Part shown: positions 42,451-57,165 of the stretch, in pieces | How the letters are laid out: each line of letters begins with the position of its first letter | Position numbering within the stretch: position 1 is the stretch's first letter | NCBI RefSeq assembly: GCF_030684315.1 | Contig: NC_081356.1 | Location: forward strand, 26,561,197 to 26,625,196 | Direction: 5' to 3' | Length of the DNA stretch: 64,000 nt | DNA from: Stegostoma tigrinum | Lineage: Eukaryota | Made by a program: the position numbers and the translations under genes | Notes under the pieces: model-generated | Told to the model about the DNA's origin: nothing | The model's database searches: none | Seen by the model: the letters and a program-made list of their open reading frames with translations, nothing else

Positions 42451-45400
42451 TTACATATTATCTATGTTGCCCTTCTTATACAAAGGAACAACATTGGCTA
42501 TTCTCCAGGGAATACTAATATTGAAGAACTGCTTCCATTGTTGGAATGTTAGAGAACAAAGACAACAGGTAAAGTAACTGGCAACATGAAAAAAAAACTT
42601 TTTTATTCAGCTAGTGTTCAAGATCTGGTTTGTCTTAGAATGTGGCAGAGTTAGGATCAGTCAAAGTTTTCAAGGGGGAATTGGATTGTTATCTGTGCAA
42701 AAATAATGTGTGCGATGACAGGGAAAAGGCGGGTGAGTGGCACTAGTTAAACTGCACCTACAGAGAACTGACAGATGTGTTGGTCCAAACGACATCCTCC
42801 TGTGCTGTAACAATTTCTATATTCCCTGAAGATTGAATTTTGTCACCATCTTGAATGCACTCTCCAAGCTGTTTGAAGTCACAGCATGATTATAAGGTTA
42901 GTCCACCATGTAAAGCAGATAAAGGCTCAAAAATGTAAACTTCATGATTAAGGCATTGGATGGGTGGGGATAGTAGTGCTAAGATAACAACTTTTAAAGG
43001 GAGAGAAAAATTGAAAATGCCATACCATGGATTAGTACACTGTTAAGGGAGAAACATAAATAGTGCCTAAGATGTAAATTATCTCAATATAAAGTCTAAA
43101 GTTAAACAGTTTCTTCGAATCTTCAATTTTTGATAAAACATGAACTGCCCTGGAAAAGTCTATTAATTTTCATCTATTTTGGTCACACCATATTACATCA
43201 GTATCAATGTGCACAACCTAATTTGTAGAAATGTAAAATTTAGTTTTAAAATTTACTGTGCTGTAATGTTCTATGTTAATATATGTTTAAAAACGAAAAA
43301 CAAAGTGCATGTATATAGCTGAGATAACAAAGTGTGGAGCTGGATGAACACAGCAGGCCAAGCAGCATCTTATGAGCACAAAAACTGATGTTTCAAAGCC
43401 TAGACCCGATATAGCTTCTTTCACTTCAGTAGGTTCCACACCACTATTCAACAAGTGAACAACTTGAGTACAGTCACAGTTGGAATGCAAGAACTACAAT
43501 ACAAACAGCAACATAATATGACCAAATAATCCTTTTCTTATGATGTTGGAACACAAACATTGCTCAATATAGTATAGAGGCCTCATTGCTCATCAAAACA
43601 GCGCAATGCCAAATGTGCTACTAGATGATTTTAGTACTAAGAACACTGGGAGACGATAATATCAAAGGGTATAATTCTAAAAGTAGCGCACAGACCCGAA
43701 AGGACAGATATGGTCTCAGATTAACATCTTAAACAATAGTGCAAAACATGCTTATTATGGCACTGGATTTATCAAAATGTTCCAGAGAGCAATGACATGA
43801 TGTAATTCATTTTCTTTGCCTAAAACGTGCATCTTGATATTGCACAATACATAGAATGGAAACAGGACTCTTTCATACAAATCATGAGATACAGTAAATA
43901 GTGAAACAATACGTATTTACTTATTAATATAGTTACTGTATCATGGCCAATAGTAATTAAATTGTAATCCTATAATGAAATTATTAGTGGATTATTAATG
44001 CTAATGAGAATGTAAATACTGTCTTAAATTCCCTTTAAAATTTCTTAGAACTTGACAGGTAGTTCGATTACAAGTAAAGTTCAGTATACTAAATTACATG
44101 AAAGGACAGGATCTAAAACTATGTGATGAACTGTGACTAACTCAGAACACATCTCATCAAAATGACTAACCATTGACTTCCAGGCTATTATTAACACAGG
44201 TCACCTACACTGAAAAATAAGGCATGCACATGTACATGCTTCCTCTAACCGTCAGTCTACAAAATAATGTCCATCTTTCAGGAACAAAAGAAACAGCAAA
44301 TGAATGAACTAAAACAGAAGAATGCATTTATTCAAAAATGACTACAAGAAATTTGTTAACTGACCATCAAAGACACATTTGCTCTACACATAGTTGGGCA
44401 TGGTACAAAACTGATCAAGTACAATTTCATGAACCAAAACAACTGTGTTAGATATGTCACTTCTTCCTTCATGGTAATTACCCACTTCTCCCTTGTTTCC
44501 TTGTTCCATTTGCTGGCAAGGGAAAAATGAGAGAGTGTGGTGCTAAGTGTTACAGGTGGGACCGAACTGAATACCTGAAGTTCCATTTGGATATACCTAT
44601 TTCCCTTCAGGCTCCTTACATTTACCAATCTTCCTTTTTCAAAAAGCAGAGCACTGTGAATGCTGAAATTTGAAATAAAAACAAGCACTTACTTAGAAGC
44701 TCAGACAGCATCCGTAGAAATAGAAGTGGTGCTAAATTTTCAAGGTGATGACCCTTCATCAGAACAGGTAGTGTTAAGACTGCACTGTTATCCAACCTAT
44801 TACAGACTTGACTTAGTCCCTATTAACCCATCCGCCCCTTTGCTGAAAACCATCACTCCCTACTCTCAAGCACTTTTATTAATGGTTATCAACTTTGATG
44901 CATAACTCTTTATTTTTCCATAGTTGCTGCCTGACCTCCTGAGTAATTGCAACCTTTTCAGAATTTTATTTCCTGGAAGCTGAATGCATTCTCCAGAGCT
45001 CTTTAACATAGAATAAGGGTGGTTTTACACTTTTCTAACAGAAATTGTAAGGCATAGGGGAGAAATGGGAATGCATGCCTGTAAGTTTTTCAGGTGGGAC
45101 CAAACCAAACTGAACATACGAAATGCCGCTCAAATGGACCAGTTGTTTCTAGACTTGAGGGCGAACACCTCATCTTCTGCCCAGGCATTTTACAGCTTTC
45201 AGGAGCAAATACAGTTTACCAATTCAGAACATGACTATCGTTCATGTTGTTATCCTCCCCAACCCCATTGGTCCTGTTTTGCATGTGTTGCTCCCAACAC
45301 AGCCATCCTGCTTTCAACCATTGTTACTTCTTGTTAACATCCTGCCCAGCATTTCTCTCCCTTAGCTTAATATCTGCAATCTCTGTTTACCTATCCTTTT

Positions 45401-46130
45401 TTCCATTCTCTCTCTCTCTCTCTCTGGGCACCCCACTCCCCTCTGCATCCTGTCATCAACATTAAAAAACACCCCTTCCTAGACTAATTTTAATTATGAC
45501 CATGGGTCACTGGACTCGAAATGACATTTTTTTCATTCTCAGATGTTGCCAGATCTGCTGAATTTCTCCAATATTTGTCAATTTTTGTTCTCCTCAAGCT
45601 CCTACCAATTACCACTGCGTCAGCCTTTTTTTTTATACTGCGGACGCTGGAAAACTGAAGAAGAGTTTCCTCATCAGGCCCGTAAGGAAGACTGCAGCAC
45701 GAATCGGGTCACCACCTCCAACTGAGACAGGTGAGGGGCACAGACAGGAACACGGAGACCCACGCTGCAAGGCGGAACCTCAAAGCCACGCCCCCTTCCT
45801 CACAATAGACTCACAGCGTCGCGCAAAAGCGCTTCGCTCGACTCCAGGTAACGTGGGAGCGCGGAGGGTTGGGCGTAACCCATTCCACACCAACATGTTG
45901 GGAGCAACACTGCACCCATCCCCCACCCACTTTCCTCCCCCACCACCATTGTCTCTGCCAATCACCTGCGCCGTGCTCGAGCCCGGACCACTCCTGGACA
46001 CTTGCAGGTTTCCCCCACGCTCAAAGTCACGCCCCTCCTTTCTTCCCTCCACCCCCGGGGGTGGCGCGGCCGTCCGTTGCGTCGGCTTGCGCCTCCACTT
46101 CGCCAAACCCCCCACCACCCTTTTCCTCAC

Positions 46131-46254
46131 CTGGCTGCTCCTTGAGCTTCATGATGGACAGGGTGTAGTGAGCCATGTCGAAGAAAGGGTACATGGAAAT
46201 CCGGGAAAATTGGATGACGAAATTGGTCAGCCCCAACGTCGATACGATATCCAT
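46131..46254 (-). CDS. TMEM38B: TMEM38B (TRIC-B trimeric intracellular cation channel), coding exon 1
   Basis: ATG at 46254; MDIVSTLGLTNFVIQFSRISMYPFFDMAHYTLSIMKLKEQP+G resembles the TRIC-B N-terminus (FSRxSMxPFFDxAHY...KxQPG). Donor CAG|GTGAG; 124 nt, phase 1. Confidence 0.93.
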
Positions 46255-46768
46255 TCTTAATTGTTAACAAACCCCTCTTTTTTTAAAACAATGTAGGTTT
46301 TTTTTAATGTATGAAAACAGACAGCTGTAAGGAAACTGCAGAGAGAGGCCGCAGCCGTATCGTGTTACCGGCGTTAATCCCCGAGTTTACACAAGTGGGT
46401 GTCGGATGTCTCTCTGAGCCCAGGCTGTGGCGATCGGGATGTAAGAGTGTTTGGACTAGATTGTTATGCCGACAGGGAAGCCCACCCCCGGTTCAACCAG
46501 CGATGTTGGAGAAACTGCCGCTTTTCTCTCTCTCGGGGGGAGGGAGGGTTTAAATGGAGAGCGGAGGCGCGCGCACCGAGCCTACCAGACGGGAAATGTG
46601 GAGTTGACAGTGCGCATGCGTGAGACGCCACACCGCCGGTTCAGCATCAGTATCGTTCCCATCCATTCATTCTCTGCACCCGGTCAAACACCGTCGAAGA
46701 AGAAAGTCCAGTCAGCTTTAATAGAAACAAAAATAGATAATTGGTGTGAAATCTCCACAGGTCTACTT

Positions 46769-46798
46769 CTGAAGACGGGTCACTGGACCCGAAACGTT
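46769..46798 (+). ncRNA. hammerhead ribozyme core motif (PLE pLTR-derived) at the upstream edge of the TMEM38B promoter
   Basis: CTGAAGA C GGGTC-ACTG-GACCC GAAAC GTT: CUGANGA box, perfect 5-bp stem II, GAAA box. Stem I pairing appears lost. Confidence 0.6.
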
Positions 46799-49058
46799 CG
46801 CTCTGTTTTCGCTGCACAGATGATGCCAGATCTGAGGTTTTTATTTCCTGCAATTTTTTTTAATTTCTGATTTCCTCCATCTGCAGTTCTTCAAGTATTT
46901 TTGTGGAGCCTTTATAAAGCGCTGGGGTAAATGTGCTTCTGTGTCACCTTTCATAATCTCAGGATGTCCCAATCTACTTTGTGGCTTATTATGTTCTTTG
47001 CAATTGTAGTCACTGTCATAATTTAAGGAATAGGTTGCTCAAGGAAAGCTTCCATGCCACACAATGTAATAATGACCAGGGAATGTGTGATCAAGGTGTT
47101 TGGAGGGATACGTATTGACCAGGACTCCAAGGTGACATTGCTCTTTTTCCAAATAGTGCAACAGGGACCTTGTAGGTTCACTTAAGAATACAGACAGAAC
47201 TTTAATTTAACAGCCATCTCACCTGACATATGTCATATTTGACTGTGCAGCACTCTCTATTTCAGAATTCTATGCTCAGATGCATACAGGGGCTTGAACA
47301 GCTGCATGGTTGGACAGTGGTCAGTACTGCTAGGGACCAGGGCTCGATTCCTATGTGGTGTTTGTACATTCTCTCCATGTCTGTGTGCTTTTCTGCTAGG
47401 TGATCCAGTTTCCTTCCATAGTCCAAAGATGTACAGGTTAGGTAGATTGGCCATGTTAAATTATCCCAGAGTGCCCAGGTTTGTGCAGGCTGGGTGGGTT
47501 AAACATGGCAAATGTAGGATCACGGAGATAGGGTGGGTCCAGGTGGAATGCTCTTCCGAGGGTCAGTGCAATTCAATGGGTTGAACAACTTCTATCTGCA
47601 TGGAGGAACTTACAATTCTGACTCAGGCAAGGATGTTACCTATTGAAGATGCTGAGTTACTAGTAATTCTTCTTCCTCCTATTAGAGTCATAGAGCTAAC
47701 AGCATGGAAACAGACCCATCTGTCCCACTCGTCCATGCCAACCAGATATCCTAAATTAATCTAGCCCCATTTGCCAGCATTTAGCCCATATCCCTCTTAA
47801 ACTCTTCCTATACATGACACCACCATCTACATGAAAAAGTTGCCCCTAGGTCCCTTTTAATCTTTCCCCTCTCACCTTAACCCTATGCCCTCTACTTTTG
47901 TACTCCCCCATCCTAGGGAAAAGACCTTGACTATTCACCCTATCCATGCCTCTCATGATTTTATAAACCTCTATCAGATCGCTTCTCAGTCTCTGACGCT
48001 GAATAGGAAATAGCCCCAACCCATTCAGCCTCTCCCTATAGTTCAAACCCTCTAACCCAGGCAACATCCTTGTAAATCTTTTCTGAGCCCTTTTAACAAT
48101 CTTGTTCCTATATCAAGGAGAATACAGTATGCCAAAAGTGCCTAACGAATATCCTGCTCAGCTACAACATCACCTCCCAACTCCCACACTCAGTGCACTG
48201 ACCAATGATGGCGAGTGTACCTCTCCCTGCCTCCAAATTTACTAGATCAGGTGAAATATTGATTTTACACCCTTTTGCTCTTTACTATTCCACTTCAACA
48301 TAACGTAAACTCTGGTAGGCTTTGAAAACAATATTGCCACCTATCTTAAAGTTAAACAATTGGGAAAAAGTAAATTTTAAAAAACCCTTTGGCTGAGTCT
48401 AATGTCAACAATTTGCATAAACATTTGCATTTTCCACCTTGTGAGTAAGGCCAAAGTTGTTTCTACAGTTCAAAAACAGGCCATTCAATCCACCTTTATT
48501 TCATGTTTACATTTATACTCTACAACATTCCGGTTCTATTCTACATTATTCCACACAATCAATATTTCTTCCTTTTTGCTTCATGTGTTTCTACATGTTT
48601 TCCCCCATGTGCATCTTTGCATTTCAATGTACAACGTCTCCAATTATGGTCTAATCAAGGTTCAACATGAGTTGAACATCTCTAATTCCATTTTATACCT
48701 CTAGAAATGAACCATTGTGGCTGTTTTAATAGCCTTATTATCACTGCTTTTAGTGATTTATAAATCAGTATGGCTCAATCCTGTATCAGTCTCTGACTTT
48801 TTGCCTAAAAAGCTGTTGTCTTTCTTATTCCTACCATCCTAAAGTTTGTATATTGAAATTCATTAGCCATTTACACATCTATTCTGCAAATTTATTCATT
48901 CATTTTTGTATTTTGTTACTTGCAACAAGTGGTTCTGCAACACCGATAGCTAGCTCCATGATAAATGAGGTAAAGTACTGACAGTATTTTCCCTTTCTGC
49001 ATTCTCCATTAGAAGCACATACCCTTGTTTTAATAGACTAATCCAAACCCTCACTGTT

Positions 49059-49100: not shown

Positions 49101-49617
49101 CTCTATTGACTATTCTTCTATTTGTTCCTTCATTCTTATACCCGGTACTTTTAGATTCCTTCTTGCAGTTGTTGACTTAGAAATTCAAGTGATTATTTTC
49201 AAGCAATAGTTTGCACTTGTACATTATTTTTAAGTATTAAGGCAATTTGAAGGAGCTGTAATTAAACAGAATTTGTATAATTAAGCTGAATGCTGGATGT
49301 GAGTTTGCTCGCTGAGCTGGAAGGTTAGTTTTCAGACGTTTCATCACTTTTTTTATTTGAAAAAATATACTTTATTCATAGAATGTACAAAAAAAATTTA
49401 TACACATACCCAGTCATACAAGCCGCTCCGGGTTACCCGGGGGTACGTACACCAACTAAAGGCAAAAACAAAACAAAGAAAATAAACAAAGCAAAGAAAA
49501 TACCCCAGCAGTCGTCTCCCAACACAGTCCCCATTGGGCCCCCTGACCAGTTGGGAAAGGCGCCAGCTGGGCCCAGTTACCAGACAGGGCCCTTTTTTCT
49601 ATTCTGGACGAGGGGTT

Positions 49618-52600
49618 TCATACCGTGGTCTTTCCCCACCTCGTCTTGGCGGCGGCTGCCCCAAGCTTTAGTGCGTCCCTCAGCACATAGTCCTGGATCT
49701 TGGAGTGTGCCAGTCTGCAACACTCGGTCGGGGTCAGTTCTTTCAGCTGGCAGACCAGCAAGTTGCGGGCAGACCAAAGAGCGTCTTTCACTGCATAGAT
49801 GGTCCTCCAGGCGCAGTTGATGTTGGTCTCGGTGTGCGTCCCGGGAAACAGCCTGTAGAGCACGGAGCTGTTCGGGACGAACCTCGACAAATACCACTGC
49901 ATCCCCCTCCAGACCTCCTGCGCATAGGCACACTCCAGAAGGAGGTGATCGACAGTCTCGTCCGCCCTGCAGCCGCCTCGAGGGCAGCATGCGGTGGTGC
50001 AAAGATTCCGGGGATGCATAAAGGATCTCACTGGCAGAGCCCCTCTCACTGCCAGCCAAGCAATGTCCTTGTGCTTGTTTGAAAGCTCTGGCGATGAGGC
50101 ATTCTGCCAAACGACTTTGGCAGTCTGCATGGGGAACCACACGACAGGATCCACCCTCTCCTTTTCCCGAAGGGTCTCAAGGATAGTACGTGCAGACCAC
50201 TGCCTGACAGCCTTGTGGTCAAAGGTGTTTCCCTTCAAAAATTTCTCCACGAGGGACAGGTGGTACGGGACGGTCCAACTACTCAGAGCATTCCGCAACA
50301 ACGAGGCCAGGCCCATCCTTCGCAACACCGGGGACAGGTAGAACCTCAGTAAGTAGTGACACTTGGCGCACAGCCTGATGCAGCCGCACACAAAGGTAGC
50401 TGTCAGGGCGAGGGTGGCGTTCGGTGTGCTCTTTTCCCCATTTTCCAGGTCTTTGTACAATGTGTCCCAGCGGACCCGGTCCATCCTCAACCCCCAAATG
50501 AAGTGGAAGATGGCCAGGTGACCGCAGCGGCGCAGGTCCAGGGAATAGGCCAGGCCTGCACCACATACAACAGTACCGAAAGCCCCTCTCACCTGACAAC
50601 CAGGTTCTTACCCGCGATGGAGAGGGATCGGAGCGTCCACCTGCCCAGCTTCTGCTTCAGTTTGGTGATACGCTCCTCCCAAGTCTTAGTGCACGCCCCA
50701 GCTCCACCAAACCAAACACCCAGCACCTTCGGGTAGTCTGTCCTGACGGTGAAGGGGATGAAGGAGCGGCCGTCCTAGTTCCCGAAGAACATGGCCTCCC
50801 TCTTACCCCTATTGACTTTGGCACCCAAGGCCAGTTCAAATTGGCCGCAGATGTCCAACAGCCTACTCACCGACCGCCGATCGGTGCAGAAGACGGCGAC
50901 ATCGTCCATGTACAGGGGAGGTCTTGACTTGAAGGCCTCCACTGTCTGGGATAGTCACGCCCTTCAGGCTCACATCCTTCCTGATGGATGCGGTGAAGGG
51001 CTCCACACAACACACGAACAAGGCAGGACAGAGCAGGCAGCCCTGCCTGACTACAGATCTGGCGGGAAAACTGTCCAATTCCCACCCGTTGATCGAGAGT
51101 GCGCTAACGATATTGGTGTGGAGCAGCCGGATCCAATTGCGGATGCCCGCCCCAAACCCCAATTTGGAGAGGACGTCCCTCATGCAAGCATGAGAGACCC
51201 TGTCGAAGGCCTTCTCCTGGTCCAGGCTGACGAGGCAGGTGTCCATGTGCCTGTCCTGCACGTAGGCGATCGTATCCCTGTTGACTGTGAGGCTCTCAGT
51301 GATCTTCCTGCCCGGCACAGCACAGGTTTTGTCAGGGTGAATCACCGACTCCAGGACAGACCTGACCTGGTTGGCTAGGACCTTGGCCAGGATTTTGTAG
51401 TCCACGTTCAATATTGAAATGGGATGCCAATTCTTAATTTCTTCCCTCTCCCCCTTCCTCTTGTAAATGAGGGTGATGATGCCCTTCCTCATGGACTTGC
51501 ACATTTCCCCTGCCCGAGGCGCACTATCGTACACCTCCAGCAGGTCCTGGCTGACCAGGTCCCACAAAGCAGAATACAGCTCGACTGGTAAGCCGTCGCT
51601 CCCAGGAGTCTTATTCCTCTCCAAGGACTTGAGGGCTCTGGTCAGCTTGTCCAGGGATATCGGCAGGTCCAGCCATTCCCTCGTGTCGTCATCTAAGACC
51701 TCAATGATAGACGACAGGGACGACTTGGAGGCCGTGCTGTCCCTGGGCTTCGCGTCATACAGTCCGGCATAGAAGGATCTGCTGATCCTCAAAACGTCGG
51801 GCCGAGATGACGTCACCGAGCCGTCACCCTCCTTCAGCCGGCTAAGCGCAGAGCTCTCTTTGTGCACCTTCTGAAAGAAGAAACGCGAGCACGTCTCGTC
51901 CTGCTCTACGGAGCGGACCCTGGACCAGAAGATTATCCTGGAGGCCTCCGCGGCGAAGAGCAAGGCTTGCTGGCCCCTCACCTCACAGAGGTCCTCTGTG
52001 ACATGGACTCCCATCAATACATGAAGGAGCAGGTTCTGCACCCTTTTCTGGAGTCGTGACAGCTTTCCCCGCCTCTCTCTCTCCTTCCGAACACCCTGGA
52101 GGACAAAGAACCTCTTGATGTTCTCCATCACCGTCTCCCACCAGTCGCCCGGAGACCCAAAGAGGGGTTTCACGGTTCTCCAACCAGCGTACTCCCTCTT
52201 AAGCTCCTCGACGTTCTCTGGGGTCAACACAGTCGTATTGAGCTTCCACGTCCCCTTGCCGGCCGGCTGGTCGTCCTGTAAGTGACAGTCAGCCAGCAGG
52301 AGGCAGTGGTCAGAGAAGAACACCGGCTGTACGCTGCTGGACCTGACCGAGAATGCCCGTGACACAAACAGGAAGTCTATCCTTGAGCGAAAAGACCCGT
52401 CTGGCCGCGACCAGGTGTATCTCCGCTGCGTTCCGTCTGCAGGGGTGCTGAAGACGTCGAGCAGCTTGGCATCCTTCACCGTGCCCATCAGGAATCTGGA
52501 CATGACGTCCAGTTGACTCCCCCCACCCGCTGTCCCCACGCCAGATCTTCCATCTGCATCGATGATGCAGTTGAAGTCTCCACCTAGGATGACCGTCCTG

Positions 52601-53011
52601 GACGTAGCTAGCAGGGTGGAAGCCGCTGCAGGACGGCCAACCGCTCACTCCGTACCGCTGGGACGTACATGTTGATCAGCCTCAGGGGAGCGTTCCTGTT
52701 GGTGACGTCAGCCACTAGGAGGCGCCCCCCCCAACCACCTCCTGAACTTGAGAGATGGTGAAGTTACGCCCCCGCAGCAGAATAGCCAGGCCCGAGGAGC
52801 GACAGTCGTTACCCCCCCCCCCCCCCGACCAGATCGAAGGCCCACAGGTCCAGGCACCAGACCAATTACTGTACCTGCCAAGGTGCGGTATCCCGCACTC
52901 CTGCAGAAACAGGAGGTCCGCCCTGACGGTGGTCACGTAGGCCAACGTGGACACACATCTTCCGGTGGACTTGACACTGCGCACATTAATGCTCGTAACT
53001 CGTACCCCCAT
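49618..53011 (-). pseudogene. Tx1 ORF2: APE endonuclease + reverse transcriptase + C-terminal zinc finger, several frameshifts/stops
   Basis: MGVRVTSINVRS, FLQE, SRIDF, FSDH, GTWKLN, PGSDGLP, PISILNVDYKI, LDQEKAFDRV, VRQG, LYMDD (~50900), CPRGGC...ETVDHLLLEC. Confidence 0.93.
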
Positions 53012-54457
53012 TGTGGGCAGTGACCGCAGTACCCTCCCCAAGTCCAAGGTCCAGCCCCTCCATCTGTCCCTTCATGCCCATTGCCGGGGCTAACTGCTGG
53101 ACGCTCTCTGGGCTCAGGAAACCGTCCGTGCTGCCTTCTGGGTGGCATCCCCCCATCGGGGGTACGGAGGCAGGAGAGTCTGGCTCTGGGTCAGGCTGGG
53201 GACGTGCTGTTTCCTCCTTCCCACCTGGAAGTTCCGGGGGGCCCTCCAGGGCCCCAGCGGCACGTGGCTGGGTGTCGGAGGGAGCCTCAGGATGCCTCCC
53301 GTCACCTGGAAGCGGGGTGCTGCTTTCCTTCTCCCTTGAGATCTTTAGCTTCTGCTTTGGGCGGGCCTCCTCCAAATCTCCCTCGTCAGAGGAGCTCTTA
53401 TAGCCCCCCTGTAGCTGCCTCTTCCCACCTGATGGTTGCGGTGCCTGGGCCTGCCGGCGTGCCTTCCTCCTCGCTTTCCGGACCGTCGTCCACTCCCCTG
53501 GGTCACCTGTCGCCGCCTCCATCAACTCCGGGTTGTCGGGGGAGGGGGGGGGAGTGGAGCCTGCAGGGGCGCTTTGCTGGCCTTGGGTGCATCCTGAGGG
53601 GCTGGGCCCTCCTGCACGACCTGGCCCTCCTGCACATTAGTGGGGTCCTTGCAGGGCCCTGGTGCCTTCCTCTCCTCCGGGAGGGCTGGCCCTGCATTGC
53701 CCCTGCCGGTGACCTGGGCGTAGGTGGTCCCCCGCTGTGGGCATGCCCTATAGAGGTGGCCCGCTTCCCCGCAAAGGTTGCAGCTTTTCTCTTGTGGACA
53801 ATTCTTTGCAAGGTGTCCCTCCTCCCTGCAGTTCCTGCAGATGGTGGCTTTGCAGTCGGCCGCCACATGACCTGACCTACCACAGGCTTGGCAGACTTTA
53901 GGTTGCCCTGCATAGGTCAGATAGCCCTTGCTCCTGCCGATCGCGAAGCTGGACGGTGGGTGTACGACATTCCCGTCCGCACCGATCCTCAGCGTCACCT
54001 TGACCTGCCTCTTACTGGTCGAGATGCCAAAGGGGTCCATGATGTCAGTTAGGTCCCCTTCCACCTTCACGTACCTTCCAAGGAAGGTCAGGACATCAAC
54101 TGCTGGCACACGCGGGTTGTACATGTGTACAGTCACCATACGGCTCCTCTGTGCTGGCATCACAAACAGCGGGACAGCAGTCAACACAGAGAGGGGGCCC
54201 TCCCCTCCTTTCTCCTTGAAAACCTCCAGGAAGCGCTCGCAAAGCTTGGCACTCCTGAAGGTCACATCGTAAAAACCTCCTCCGGGGAAATCCTGCAGGC
54301 AGTAAATGTCCGCAGCAGCGAACCCGCAACAGTCCAACAGGACCCTCTTCACGAAGAAGGTGCGGTCCGCAGGTGCACCTTCATCCACCTTCTTTGCGGA
54401 AACACGGATGGTGTTCCGGACCCCCTGACCTGAGGCACGAGCACTTGCCGCAGCCAT
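52986..54457 (-). pseudogene. Tx1 ORF1, gag-like protein with three CCHC zinc knuckles (ZCCHC3-like); frameshift in the C-run near 53540
   Basis: MAAASARASG... with CQACGRSGHVAADC, CRNCREEGHLAKNC and CNLCGEAGHLYRAC. Continues in the 52986-53525 frame. Confidence 0.9.
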
Positions 54458-54657
54458 CGTTGCAGGTTGGCTGCTCCCCTGAATCAGCGTTAGGCCGAAG
54501 CCAGCATTAAGATCCACCGGTTGCAAGGGTGCACAGCCAACCCGACGTCTTCCTTTCAGCTCCAACACAGCGCTCTCCTCCTCTCGGTCCGCAAGAGAGT
54601 GGGTCTTTATTTTGTTCCGGATGTAAGCTGGTTCACTGAGCTTGAAGGTTTGTTCCC

Positions 54658-54698
54658 AGATGTTTCGTCACCTTTCTAGGTAACATCAACAGTGAGCC
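54658..54698 (-). ncRNA. hammerhead ribozyme motif spanning the PLE/Tx1 5' junction (mutated)
   Basis: GGCTCA CTGTTGA T GTTACC-TAGAAA-GGTGAC GAAAC ATC TGGG: 6-bp stem II and GAAA box intact. The CUGAUGA box carries an A>U change. Confidence 0.7.
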
Positions 54699-56752
54699 TC
54701 CGACAAAGCACTGGTGTTATGTCCCGCTTTCTATTTATTTGTTTAGGTTTCCTTGGGTTGGTGATGTCGTTTCCTGTGTTGGTGATGTCATTTCCTGTTC
54801 TTTTTCTCAGAGGATGGTAGATTGATTTGGAGCCAATGTGTTTGTTGATGGAGTTCCGGTTGGAATGCCATGCTTCTAGGAATTCTCGTGTGTGTCTCTG
54901 TTTGGCTTGTCCTAGGATGGATGTGTTATCCCAATCAAAGTGGTGTCCTTCCTCATCTGTATGTAAGGATACGAGTGATAGTGGGTCATGTCTTTTTGTG
55001 GCTAGTTGATGTTCATGTATCCTGGTGGCTAGCTTTCAGCCTGTTTGTCCAATGTAGTGTGTGTCACAATTCTTGCAAGGTATTTTGTAAATGACGTTCG
55101 TTTTGCTTGTTGTCTGTATAGGGTCTTTTATGATTGCTGAATGCTGCAATAATATTTTAAGACAGGATGCCTAAGTCTGATCCAATAAGTTAGTTTTCAA
55201 AAGTCCCTAAAAGGAAAAGTGGGAGCTTTAGGGAGGGCAAAGTAGTAGTTTTAGGCAGTGAATGCCAGAGCTTAGCATTGATCCAGTTGAATGTGTGATT
55301 GTCAATGTTAGGGATACAAAAAGCAAGAATGCAAAAATATCCAAATTTATGTAAGACCTGGCAATTAGTCCTCATGATTGTCAATTTCTTACATTATTTT
55401 ACTGGTATTTTGATTCAGGAAAAGTAGAATCCTGAATCAATTTGAATTATATGACTGAATAAAGAACAGTAGACTGCAGATGAAAGAGTTGGGCAGGTGG
55501 CAGCACAGATAGGAGAGTTGGCAAGTAGACATGTGTCTCAAGGAGTGAAACAGCCCATTCTAAAGTTGGGACACAGGTTTTATTGGCTCTGACAAGAAAT
55601 TATGCCAAATCATGACACGATGTATGTGCACAGGTCCTGTTGTATGAGCAGTGCTAAAGTGGAGTGTTGCTAAATTAGGCAACTTAAAATGAAGAGTTAC
55701 TCTAGGTACCATTAGTTTTGACACCCTTACCAAAGGAAACTGTTTCTACATCTACTTGATGAAATTATTTTAAGCTCTTTGATCAGACTGCCCCTCAATC
55801 TGTACATTCACAGGAATGCAAGACATAGGAATGCAACCCATTCTCATAACTTTCATAACATTCTCATAATCATTTCGGCCTGAGTATCATTTTAGTGAAT
55901 GTAATTTCCAGAATGAAACATCACTGTGCTCCTGTGATGTGGTGCTCTTAACTATATGCAATATTCTTGCTGGAATCTAACCAAGGTTCTCTACAGTTGA
56001 AGTGTAGTTTATTCCCCCTCGTATTCAGGCCACTTGCTTGTTGTGATCAATGTTAATGATTCGGACTTAAGTGTAGAGGGTATGATCAAGACATTCAAGG
56101 TGACATGAAAATTAGTGAGGTGGTAAACAGTGACGGAGATAGCCATGAACTGCAGAAGGATATCCACAGACTGGTCAGCTGGGCAGAGCAGTGTCAAATG
56201 TTGTTCAACCTAGCAAAGTGTGAGGGAGTACTCTGAGGAAGGAATAACAAGGCAAGGGACTGCACTATAAAATGATAGGATCTTGGAGAGTAATGAAGTT
56301 CATTGGGACTTGGCATGCATGTCCATAGATTCCTGAAAGTGGCAGGACAGGTGATGAGTTGATTAAGAAGACCTGTGGGATTTTTGCCTTTATTAGCCAC
56401 AGCATAGAATACTAGAACAGAAATAATGAGAGAACTGTATAAAATGCTGGTTAAAATAGAGTACTGTGTGCAATCCTAGTGACCAAATAATGAGAAGGAA
56501 TGTGATTGCTCTAGAGAGCGTGTGGAGGAGATTTACCCGGAACGTCAGCCTTCCTGCTCCTCTGATGCTGCATGGCCTGCTGTGTTTATCCAGCTTCACA
56601 CTGTGTTATCTCAGCATCTGCAGTTCCTACTATCTCTCAAAAATTTAATTCATTTAGAGGTATTTTGCTCCATTCAAAGGCCTACTGTAGCCATACAACA
56701 GACATCATGTCTGAACAATCTTGCCCAATGTATAATAATGGTGACATTTTAC

Positions 56753-57085
56753 ATAGAACATAGAACAGTACAGCACAGAACAGGCCCTTCAGCCCACGAT
56801 GTTGTGCTGACCATTGATCCTCATGTATGCACCCTCAAATTTCTGTGACCATATGCATGTCTAGCCGTCTCTTAAATGTCCCCAATGACCTTGCTTCCAC
56901 AACTGCTGCTGGCAACGCATTCCATGCTCTCACAACTCTCTGTGTAAAGAACCCGCCTCTGACATCCCCTCTATACTTTCCTCCAACCGGCTTAAAACTA
57001 TGACCCCTCGTGTTAGCCTTTTCTGCCCTGGGAAATAGTCTCTGGCTATCAACTCTATCTATGCCTCTCATTATCTTGTATACCT
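56753..57085 (-). mobile_element. young CR1 3' end (same subfamily as 9611-11363)
   Basis: Nearly identical to ~9616-9947; encodes MRGIDRVDSQRLFPRAE; ATGTTCT tail. Confidence 0.93.
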
Positions 57086-57094
57086 ACAACAAGC

Positions 57095-57165
57095 TGCGTG
57101 GGCCGGGAATTGAACCCGGGCCTTGCGCCTAGCAGGCGAGAACTCTACCACTGAACCACCAATGC
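57095..57165 (-). pseudogene. tRNA-Gly(GCC)-derived pseudogene
   Basis: GCATTGGTGGTTCAGTGGTAGAGTTCTCGCCTGCTAGGCGCAAGGCCCGGGTTCAATTCCCGGCCCACGCA, 71 nt, 8 differences from the recalled vertebrate tRNA-Gly(GCC). Anticodon GCT; mismatches in the acceptor and anticodon stems. Confidence 0.88.

Follow-up and report, generated by a model that had tools for sequence, protein, structure and literature searches.

The window, a 64,000-nt stretch of the 3.2-Gb genome of Stegostoma tigrinum, contains a full-length Tx1-like APE/RT LINE of about 5.3 kb (49348–54671, minus strand, from leader to poly(A)) inside a Penelope-like element (PLE). Read on the minus strand, the order is truncated PLE, leader, 5′UTR, ORF1, ORF2, poly(A) and the downstream half of the PLE's pLTR, with an 11-bp direct repeat outside all of these parts. 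The 5′-truncated upstream half of the host PLE (54672–55135, minus strand) consists of a GIY-YIG-like C-terminus and the pLTR; a 150-residue fragment, with X at one stop, matched the GIY-YIG profile at E = 0.004 and 17.8 bits, which is under the Pfam cut-off of 22.6. The downstream half of the target pLTR, with a short 3′ end, is target-derived (49293–49347, minus strand). The 11-bp repeat around the composite, present as originally predicted, is the target-site duplication (TSD) of the PLE, with a left copy at 49285–49295, which overlaps the PLE end by 3 nt, and a right copy at 55136–55146 (both plus strand).

All parts of the LINE lie on the minus strand. The element-borne leader (54613–54671; +0 to +58 when site positions are counted relative to 54671) is a diverged copy of the PLE 3′ terminus and precedes the 5′UTR proper (54458–54612), which gave a fold z-score of −0.58 and no Rfam match, and in which no HDV-like ribozyme was found by eye. 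The first open segment of ORF1 (53522–54457) encodes two ZCCHC3-type RNA-binding domains and CCHC knuckles (PF23057, PF23058, PF00098), and ORF2 (49618–53011), spread across several frames, encodes an APE endonuclease, an RT and a zf-RVT domain (PF03372, PF00078, PF13966). The ORFs of this copy are broken by frameshifts. An ORF1 with such RNA-binding domains and CCHC knuckles is what we take to be a mark of Tx1, and Tx1 serves here as the presumed clade label of the LINE. The trio of APE, RT and zf-RVT was also found in most ORF2 homologues among the matches listed; the name Tx1 was attached to none of the 120 listed ORF2 homologues, in a listing without a named reference set. ORF1 homologues in named vertebrates were from cartilaginous fishes, with relatives in Heterodontus, Chiloscyllium and Mobula. 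Contigs of other organisms contain related PLE and Tx1-like ORF2 sequence, and none among the matches listed bridged a Tx1–PLE junction. In one sequencing run, the summed contig depth of ORF2 was several times that of the 3′UTR, which hints at related Tx1-like families with other 3′UTRs within a single organism.

The sole Rfam match in the whole window was a tRNA-like sequence (57095–57165, minus strand; 40.9 bits), which has several non-standard pairs and may be a SINE head or a pseudogene. Inverted matches of 75 nt and 22 nt between 43256–43392 and 56541–56778, 13 kb apart, are probably SINE copies in opposite orientation. The GC-rich region 45562–46870, with overlapping open frames, is possibly a host-gene exon or promoter near the insertion. 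Five further loci (L001, L003, L010, L027, L068) share with the window a short inverted stretch of the pLTR region (54815–54835).

The empty target site fits a minimal PLE hammerhead by the criteria of PMC4209133, with CUGAUGA, a bulged U, a 6-bp stem II, GAAA and a palindromic ACGU helix III, and its cut is predicted after GUC; dimer cleavage is described in PMC6765202. The layout is that of Anolis Poseidon PAc, in which the hammerhead overlaps the ORF start and two 3′ ends lie about 40 nt apart (PMC11167929). A bulged base before stem II, a palindromic helix III and inverted pairs are likewise shared with PAc and other minimal PLE hammerheads (PMC11167929, PMC4209133). Moreover, the 3′ ends of the PLE copies were bimodal, with 111 of 267 at +52 to +60 and 134 of 267 at +85 to +97, and resemble the pair of RT start sites in anole Poseidon (PMC11167929). 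The accessible parts of these papers describe the host element and mention no LINE inserting there. The target site also contains a small DNA inverted repeat, GACG-AAA-CGTC (49330–49343 and 54657–54669), of which one lineage of the LINE, with a TGATT-type sequence, keeps the GAC/GTC arms.

A pattern from the 3′ part of the leader matched 2,297 exact sites in the genome. Among the first 100 in genome order, the leader was followed by the Tx1 5′UTR in all 100 and preceded by the pLTR in 92, by Tx1 poly(A) in seven and by other sequence in one. The leader therefore does not belong to a second PLE subfamily, the alternative named beforehand, as none of the 100 continued into a PLE tail. With a leader-free query, the leader was present in all of the best 30 matches to the ORF1 start: 26 followed the upstream half of the pLTR, three followed the poly(A) of another copy, and one was rearranged with a partial leader. 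Conversely, the downstream half of the pLTR followed the 3′UTR in all of the best 30 matches to the 3′UTR. Both sets of 30 contain the window copy, and the 3′UTR set also contains duplicated loci. The first 30 poly(A) inserts at the target site all belonged to this same family, and poly(A) tails vary in length within it. The 5′ junction was still found in 16 of 20 3′-end loci without the exact 5′ pattern, so the majority of the family is full length. Priming of the 3′ end occurs at the target, where the poly(A) junction is fresh and the flanks are local, and two 5′-truncated copies (L087, L208) with a TSD inside the pLTR record independent insertion. The LINE thus has a single insertion point, which lies within the minimal hammerhead of a PLE. 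Its youngest branches are 0.4–0.7% long, and the family has been recently active.

Each junction recreates the target, so that new copies stack upstream, as in the seven of 100 junctions that were re-targeted by a further copy. Self-immunity of the junction was unsupported (7/100 re-targeted versus a rough fill rate of 12–15%). Internal deletions of 0.1–3 kb despite intact ends, unusual for simple 5′ truncation, occurred in many copies (among them L096, L097, L103, L114, L119, L181, L188, L194, L254).

In structure, as judged from its sequence, the LINE fits the Tx1 families that target transposable elements (PMC4494074, PMC4640811). These include Xenopus Tx1 in Tx1D, crocodilian Tx1-Mar, Tx1-8_Crp and Tx1-4_AMi in LTR elements, and Tx1-9_AMi in Harbinger, all two-ORF APE LINEs inside another transposon that form sequential tandems, and for which transcription from the flank has been proposed (PMC4494074). 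In contrast to the present family, no PLE target, target-derived leader or upstream overwriting is mentioned in the accessible part of that paper; targeting here was 100% in our samples, whereas preference was defined there as >20%. Keno, of the Tx1 clade, and Utopia also use a fixed site in a conserved functional RNA motif, but their target is the host U2 snRNA gene and not the ribozyme of a mobile element (PMC4640811). In the open literature, we found no Tx1 element that targets a Penelope-like element; Repbase, subscription journals and supplements lay outside this scope, so a Repbase entry may exist. The accessible part of bioRxiv 10.64898/2026.07.22.740005 does not mention Tx1.

The leader was recognised in the original prediction from an ungapped match of 54619–54671 to 49295–49347, with 42 of 53 positions identical. 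We found the same value, and the next best 53-nt stretch on either strand of the 64 kb reached only 28/53. The homology extends further, to +58 (54613), with 46/59 identity, so that the leader is 22% diverged. It was predicted to be an inherited piece of pLTR that full-length copies share rather than a match to their own 3′ flank; essentially all full-length copies indeed carry it, and it mismatches their own 3′ flank.

Inheritance of the leader was assessed on a FastTree phylogeny of element bodies with CpG columns masked, built without branch support values from 61 elements with both ends after filters (80 fetched loci and the window). The mean non-CpG divergence was 2.4%, and the tree was nearly star-like and ladder-like. 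Leader and flank columns were compared with this tree by parsimony against shuffled labels. Leader positions +10, +17, +20, +25 to +28 and +41 tracked the body tree at P = 0.001, and +6, +8 and +52 did so at P ≤ 0.02; positions +4, +5 and +9 did not track it in the 61 elements. None of the eight polymorphic 3′-flank columns, nor the base at the 3′ junction or the PLE tail length, tracked the tree (P = 0.14–1.0). Hence, the leader is transmitted together with the element, whereas each 3′ flank belongs to the local target.

The first 15 nt of the leader differ from the target at two positions only, both CpG as had been noted, and had been read as a plausible true TSD of the LINE. That reading fails. 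The 15 nt were identical at both ends in only five of 53 full-length copies, and the base at +10 required seven changes on the tree compared with 13.7 after shuffling (P = 0.001). It was of the element type in 86 of 93 junctions of ACAUC-type haplotypes (~92%). These 15 nt come mostly from the element and do not constitute a TSD. TSDs sharing private bases, of 14–17 bp, were seen only in the two 5′-truncated copies; none of 30 loci found with the C/T pattern at +15, through which truncated copies were sought, was one.

Where the leader came from can be proposed from its far end. The homology stops at +58, at the short 3′ terminus of the PLE, so the leader is likely a whole PLE end that was captured: a PLE copy would have ended right at the 5′ end of the ancestral LINE, which thereby gained the promoter of the pLTR together with a PLE terminus of about 59 nt. 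Propagation of an unusually long TSD is a rather unlikely origin. It has a direct precedent in the 22-bp downstream duplication of the earwig R2 (PMC3774820), long staggers such as the 126 bp of R9 are cited in PMC6895275, and a few copies (L067, L074, L147, L243, L257) are target-like to +20 to +35. Yet the leader ends in the narrow peak of short PLE termini, and the two measured TSDs are only 14–17 bp. The two ideas merge if the target was a short-ended PLE copy.

The closest parallel is R2, which is likewise site-specific and co-transcribed with its target, and in which RNA-borne target sequence gives uniform 5′ junctions with propagated variants (PMC3774820); in earwigs, the 5′ end of R2 includes 22 bp of downstream target in which three bases are substituted (PMC3774820). 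R2, however, a single-ORF element, cuts its 28S target with a restriction-like endonuclease and brings an HDV-like ribozyme of its own, which is active, whereas the present LINE has an APE endonuclease and the broken ribozyme of its target element; it inserts into another retroelement, at whose terminus its 59-nt duplication ends. Membership of R2 was ruled out by the APE, the two ORFs and the absence of an Rfam ribozyme match in 54380–54800.

The element also changes DNA upstream of its junction. At −18 (54689), an A in the CUGAUGA core (A6) is replaced by T in many filled sites. Exact sites numbered 881 with the T form and 12,688 with the intact A form, and the element was present at 29 of the first 30 T sites versus one of the first 30 A sites. 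In the 92 genome-order junctions, a sample picked by the leader 3′ part, −18 was T in 37, A in 47 and another state in eight; BLAST-ranked first samples had overstated T (~65–70% versus 40% in the genome-order sample). A hand count of another sample gave T 42, A 55 and other 3 (n = 100), in which seven of 40 checked non-T sites were not full-length junctions. C or G was found at −18 in three of the 92 junctions, perhaps by misrepair of an A:A mismatch; these numbers are small. In contigs of three other organisms, A made up 95–99% of depth at the position corresponding to 54689.

The PLE copies often lie head-to-head, which allowed 92 pairs to be compared. The polymorphism at −71 was discordant in three of 24 empty–empty and seven of 38 filled–empty pairs, versus 49% expected if arms were unrelated, so the twin arms stem from one template. 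All 27 readable empty–empty pairs were A/A at −18. The 49 filled–empty pairs, a set enriched in T by sampling, comprised 28 T/A, one T/T, 13 A/A and seven other or unreadable cases; thus, of the 29 readable cases with T in the filled arm, 28 had A in the empty twin. This implies that the T is written in at insertion. T occurred in all nine named leader haplotypes, mixed with A in eight, and was not clustered on the tree (16 versus 18.3 changes, P = 0.17), a pattern compatible with partial transmission but no proof that all donors carried T. It was the only persistent element-borne change found in −1 to −40.

That T could instead be a pre-existing PLE variant, strongly preferred by the Tx1 endonuclease until T sites became saturated, is extremely improbable. 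The filling of 29 of 30 T sites would agree with it, as would three empty arms with T, but the empty twins of T-filled arms carry A, and T was unlinked to the PLE polymorphisms at −71, −32 and +20 (p > 0.7). Saturation would moreover predict many tandems, seen in only three of 25 T sites versus four of 30 A sites, and T-bearing empty sites make up ~0.2% (from one match in 30), near the single-base background (54 sites).

The same pairs bear on whether the PLE machinery copies PLE::Tx1 composites in one piece, for which three of 20 3′-end loci arranged head-to-head with the centre missing (L245, L249, L259) could speak, as could two arms of one locus that are sisters on the tree (L230/L231). 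The empty twin arms carry A, however, and paired filled arms differed by 2.6–8.2% outside CpG sites, about as much as random pairs do (median 4.3%). Furthermore, 3′ flank, junction base and tail length were random on the tree, two truncated copies had TSDs inside the pLTR, and tandems joined different leader haplotypes (L183). With the leader inherited and the 3′ flank local, hitchhiking is rejected as the main route, and we regard it as highly improbable. Head-to-head loci without a centre (L245, L249, L259, L095, L109), with one or both arms starting inside Tx1, may be long inverted repeats whose middle was deleted, or the PLE machinery may now and then copy RNA that contains Tx1. Leader-type letters also occur at five PLE ends that have no Tx1 behind them (L203, L206, L237, the L252 3′ flank and the L279 partner arm); these ends are maybe pop-out scars, from solo-LTR-like recombination between leader and downstream half, or conversion products; −18 was A in all four readable cases.

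The preferred reading is that insertion overwrites flanking target DNA from an RNA template. Element-derived bases made up ~92% at +10 and ~40% at −18, and −71 was mostly target-derived; at −32 the counts were 7/46 versus 2/28, and the tract end was fixed neither by −32 nor by binned mismatch rates. No upstream duplication occurred in 137 junctions. The gradient over +10, −18 and −71 would be the expected trace of a heteroduplex between cDNA and target, in which a mismatch left unresolved would be transmitted in about half of cases. The outcome at the 5′ end is thus observed, with bases overwritten to at least 18 nt upstream, and joining through such a heteroduplex is its probable mechanism; homology-guided 5′ joining, suggested beforehand as a possibility, has gained more support than was then supposed. 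The RNA would likely start in the upstream pLTR, where a TATA-like ATAAATAG at −67 (54731–54738, minus strand) is a candidate promoter element, and two GGAAAYGACATCA repeats at −103 and −124 (54762–54795, minus strand) are ETS-CRE-like by resemblance only (PMC3464117). Together they suggest a start near −40, fitting the tract limits. The top strand may be cut near +15, judging from the 14–17-bp TSDs of the two truncated copies. Four PLE copies (L272, L278, L280, L282) end at +15, at this putative nick and 3 bases past the nominal ribozyme cut; the DNA after their ends is unrelated, with no downstream half within ~1.5 kb.

In the window, the junction hammerhead (54659–54696, minus strand; criteria of PMC4209133) reads as originally described, including the lengthening of stem I from 3 to 4 bp: CUGUUGA at 54692–54686, with the element-borne T written into the target pLTR, is followed by an intact 6-bp stem II and by GAAACAUC at 54666–54659. 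Its nominal cleavage site lies after 54659. From the leader come the 3′ strand of stem II, GAAA, a dimer helix III that is broken by +10 G>A (54661), and a TGA that stops the PLE frame. With A6>U at 54689 and a C15.2·A16.2 mismatch, the ribozyme is predicted to be inactive. The original prediction also expected inactivity in this copy, which stands, yet the mutated core is not private decay, since it is a family trait found in all nine named leader haplotypes. No credible Rfam match was found at the junction (54380–54800). Monomer folds gave no hammerhead at empty or filled sites (z = −0.4 to −0.9) and are uninformative, because minimal hammerheads are expected to be dimeric.

Across the 92 junctions, CUGAUGA or CUGACGA was exact in 45, and GAAACGUC, which combines GAAA with the palindromic 15.2–16.2 pair for the dimer helix III, was present in eight. 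Both CUGANGA and GAAACGUC were intact in six of 92 junctions versus 21 of 63 empty arms (p = 2e-5), the empty arms being an incidental and not perfectly unbiased set. CUGANGA, GAAA and UC were kept in 26 of 92 when helix III was disregarded. Three breaks are inherited: A6U, +10 G>A, and, in a separate lineage accounting for ~15 of 92 junctions, replacement of GAAAC by the TGATT-type sequence through non-CpG multi-base changes. The +10 change places a C·A mismatch in helix III, which is predicted to protect the substrate RNA even from wild-type partners.

These counts contradict the idea that the junction rebuilds a working hammerhead, so that read-through RNA cleaves itself at +12 and the cleaved RNA serves as template. 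Its appeal lies in the 5′ ribozymes of R2 and other LINEs (PMC3774820, PMC6765202), in the longer stem I and in the six fully intact cores. Yet 86 of 92 cores are broken, and the intact junctions (L215, L218, L221) are scattered on the tree by eye. Moreover, four element-borne positions (+6, +8, +10 and −18) are situated on the 5′ side of the cut, so the template is mostly uncleaved RNA; a base 30 nt upstream of the cleavage site reaches new sites, which RNA freed at that site could not achieve. The route through an active hammerhead is therefore largely refuted as the main route, is at most minor, and has very little probability. The junction ribozyme has likely been switched off rather than rebuilt, to judge from the junction letters, and the RNA would likely run uncleaved through it. 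Taken jointly, we consider it quite probable that the LINE targets the PLE hammerhead, carries an inherited PLE end, and uses uncleaved RNA as the template for upstream overwriting.

Whether loss of the ribozyme was selected, because an uncleaved RNA retains its cap and the upstream homology, is a closer question, which we would answer with a cautious yes. A selective advantage would explain why T is the sole persistent element-borne change in −1 to −40 even though about half of the insertions receive A from the target. It would be at odds with the lack of enrichment in the core, the two CpG transitions, the intact stem II, the longer stem I and the removal of an upstream AUG. The same insertion with heteroduplex could also have come with neutral loss, through one or a few long-lived master loci that happened to have A6U and CpG decay, or with a benefit from the removed upstream AUG; we think this somewhat doubtful, yet a real contender. 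Leader changes hit one of eight core positions versus 12 of 51 elsewhere, drift suffices at +5 and +10 since these are CpG sites, and the ladder-like tree fits a master-gene model. In an empty PLE copy, an open frame runs from the hammerhead core; of the three in-frame AUGs of the PLE, the first becomes UUG through the T at −18, and in 50 of 61 copies a stop in the leader limits the PLE frame to 17 codons. PLE minimal hammerheads also cleave weakly (PMC4209133, PMC11167929), and for the anole element PMC11167929 reports, in its accessible part, no reads ending at the hammerhead site, so there may be little cleavage to avoid. Neutral loss, on the other hand, sits poorly with a T that alone persists in −1 to −40 despite a 22% diverged leader and an A-supplying target, that occurs in all nine named haplotypes, and that is accompanied by a separate lineage with non-CpG multi-base replacement of GAAAC. 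As for the upstream AUG, two AUGs remain, and the gain from removing one would seem small.

If the junction changes were indeed selected, the minimal hammerheads of PLEs must cleave in vivo, a debated point that thereby becomes testable. A tentative reading, to which we give slightly less than even credence, is that the LINE is a specialised parasite of the PLE ribozyme and promoter, with selected anti-cleavage mutations acting in cis and in trans and a ribozyme-killing change introduced in ~40% of its targets. If so, an APE-type LINE would in nature be editing the DNA beside its insertions from an RNA template, and this would provide genomic evidence for in vivo cleavage by PLE minimal hammerheads. 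For the 5′ joining of APE-type LINEs, whose second-strand steps PMC6895275 describes as an open question, some two thousand natural insertions here record the reach of RNA-borne overwriting, and in many of them the untouched twin arm serves as an internal control. The target range of Tx1 is extended to a Penelope-like element and to a ribozyme. As a recently active, mostly full-length and site-specific APE LINE with >11,000 empty repeat sites, the family is a candidate model for precise insertion.
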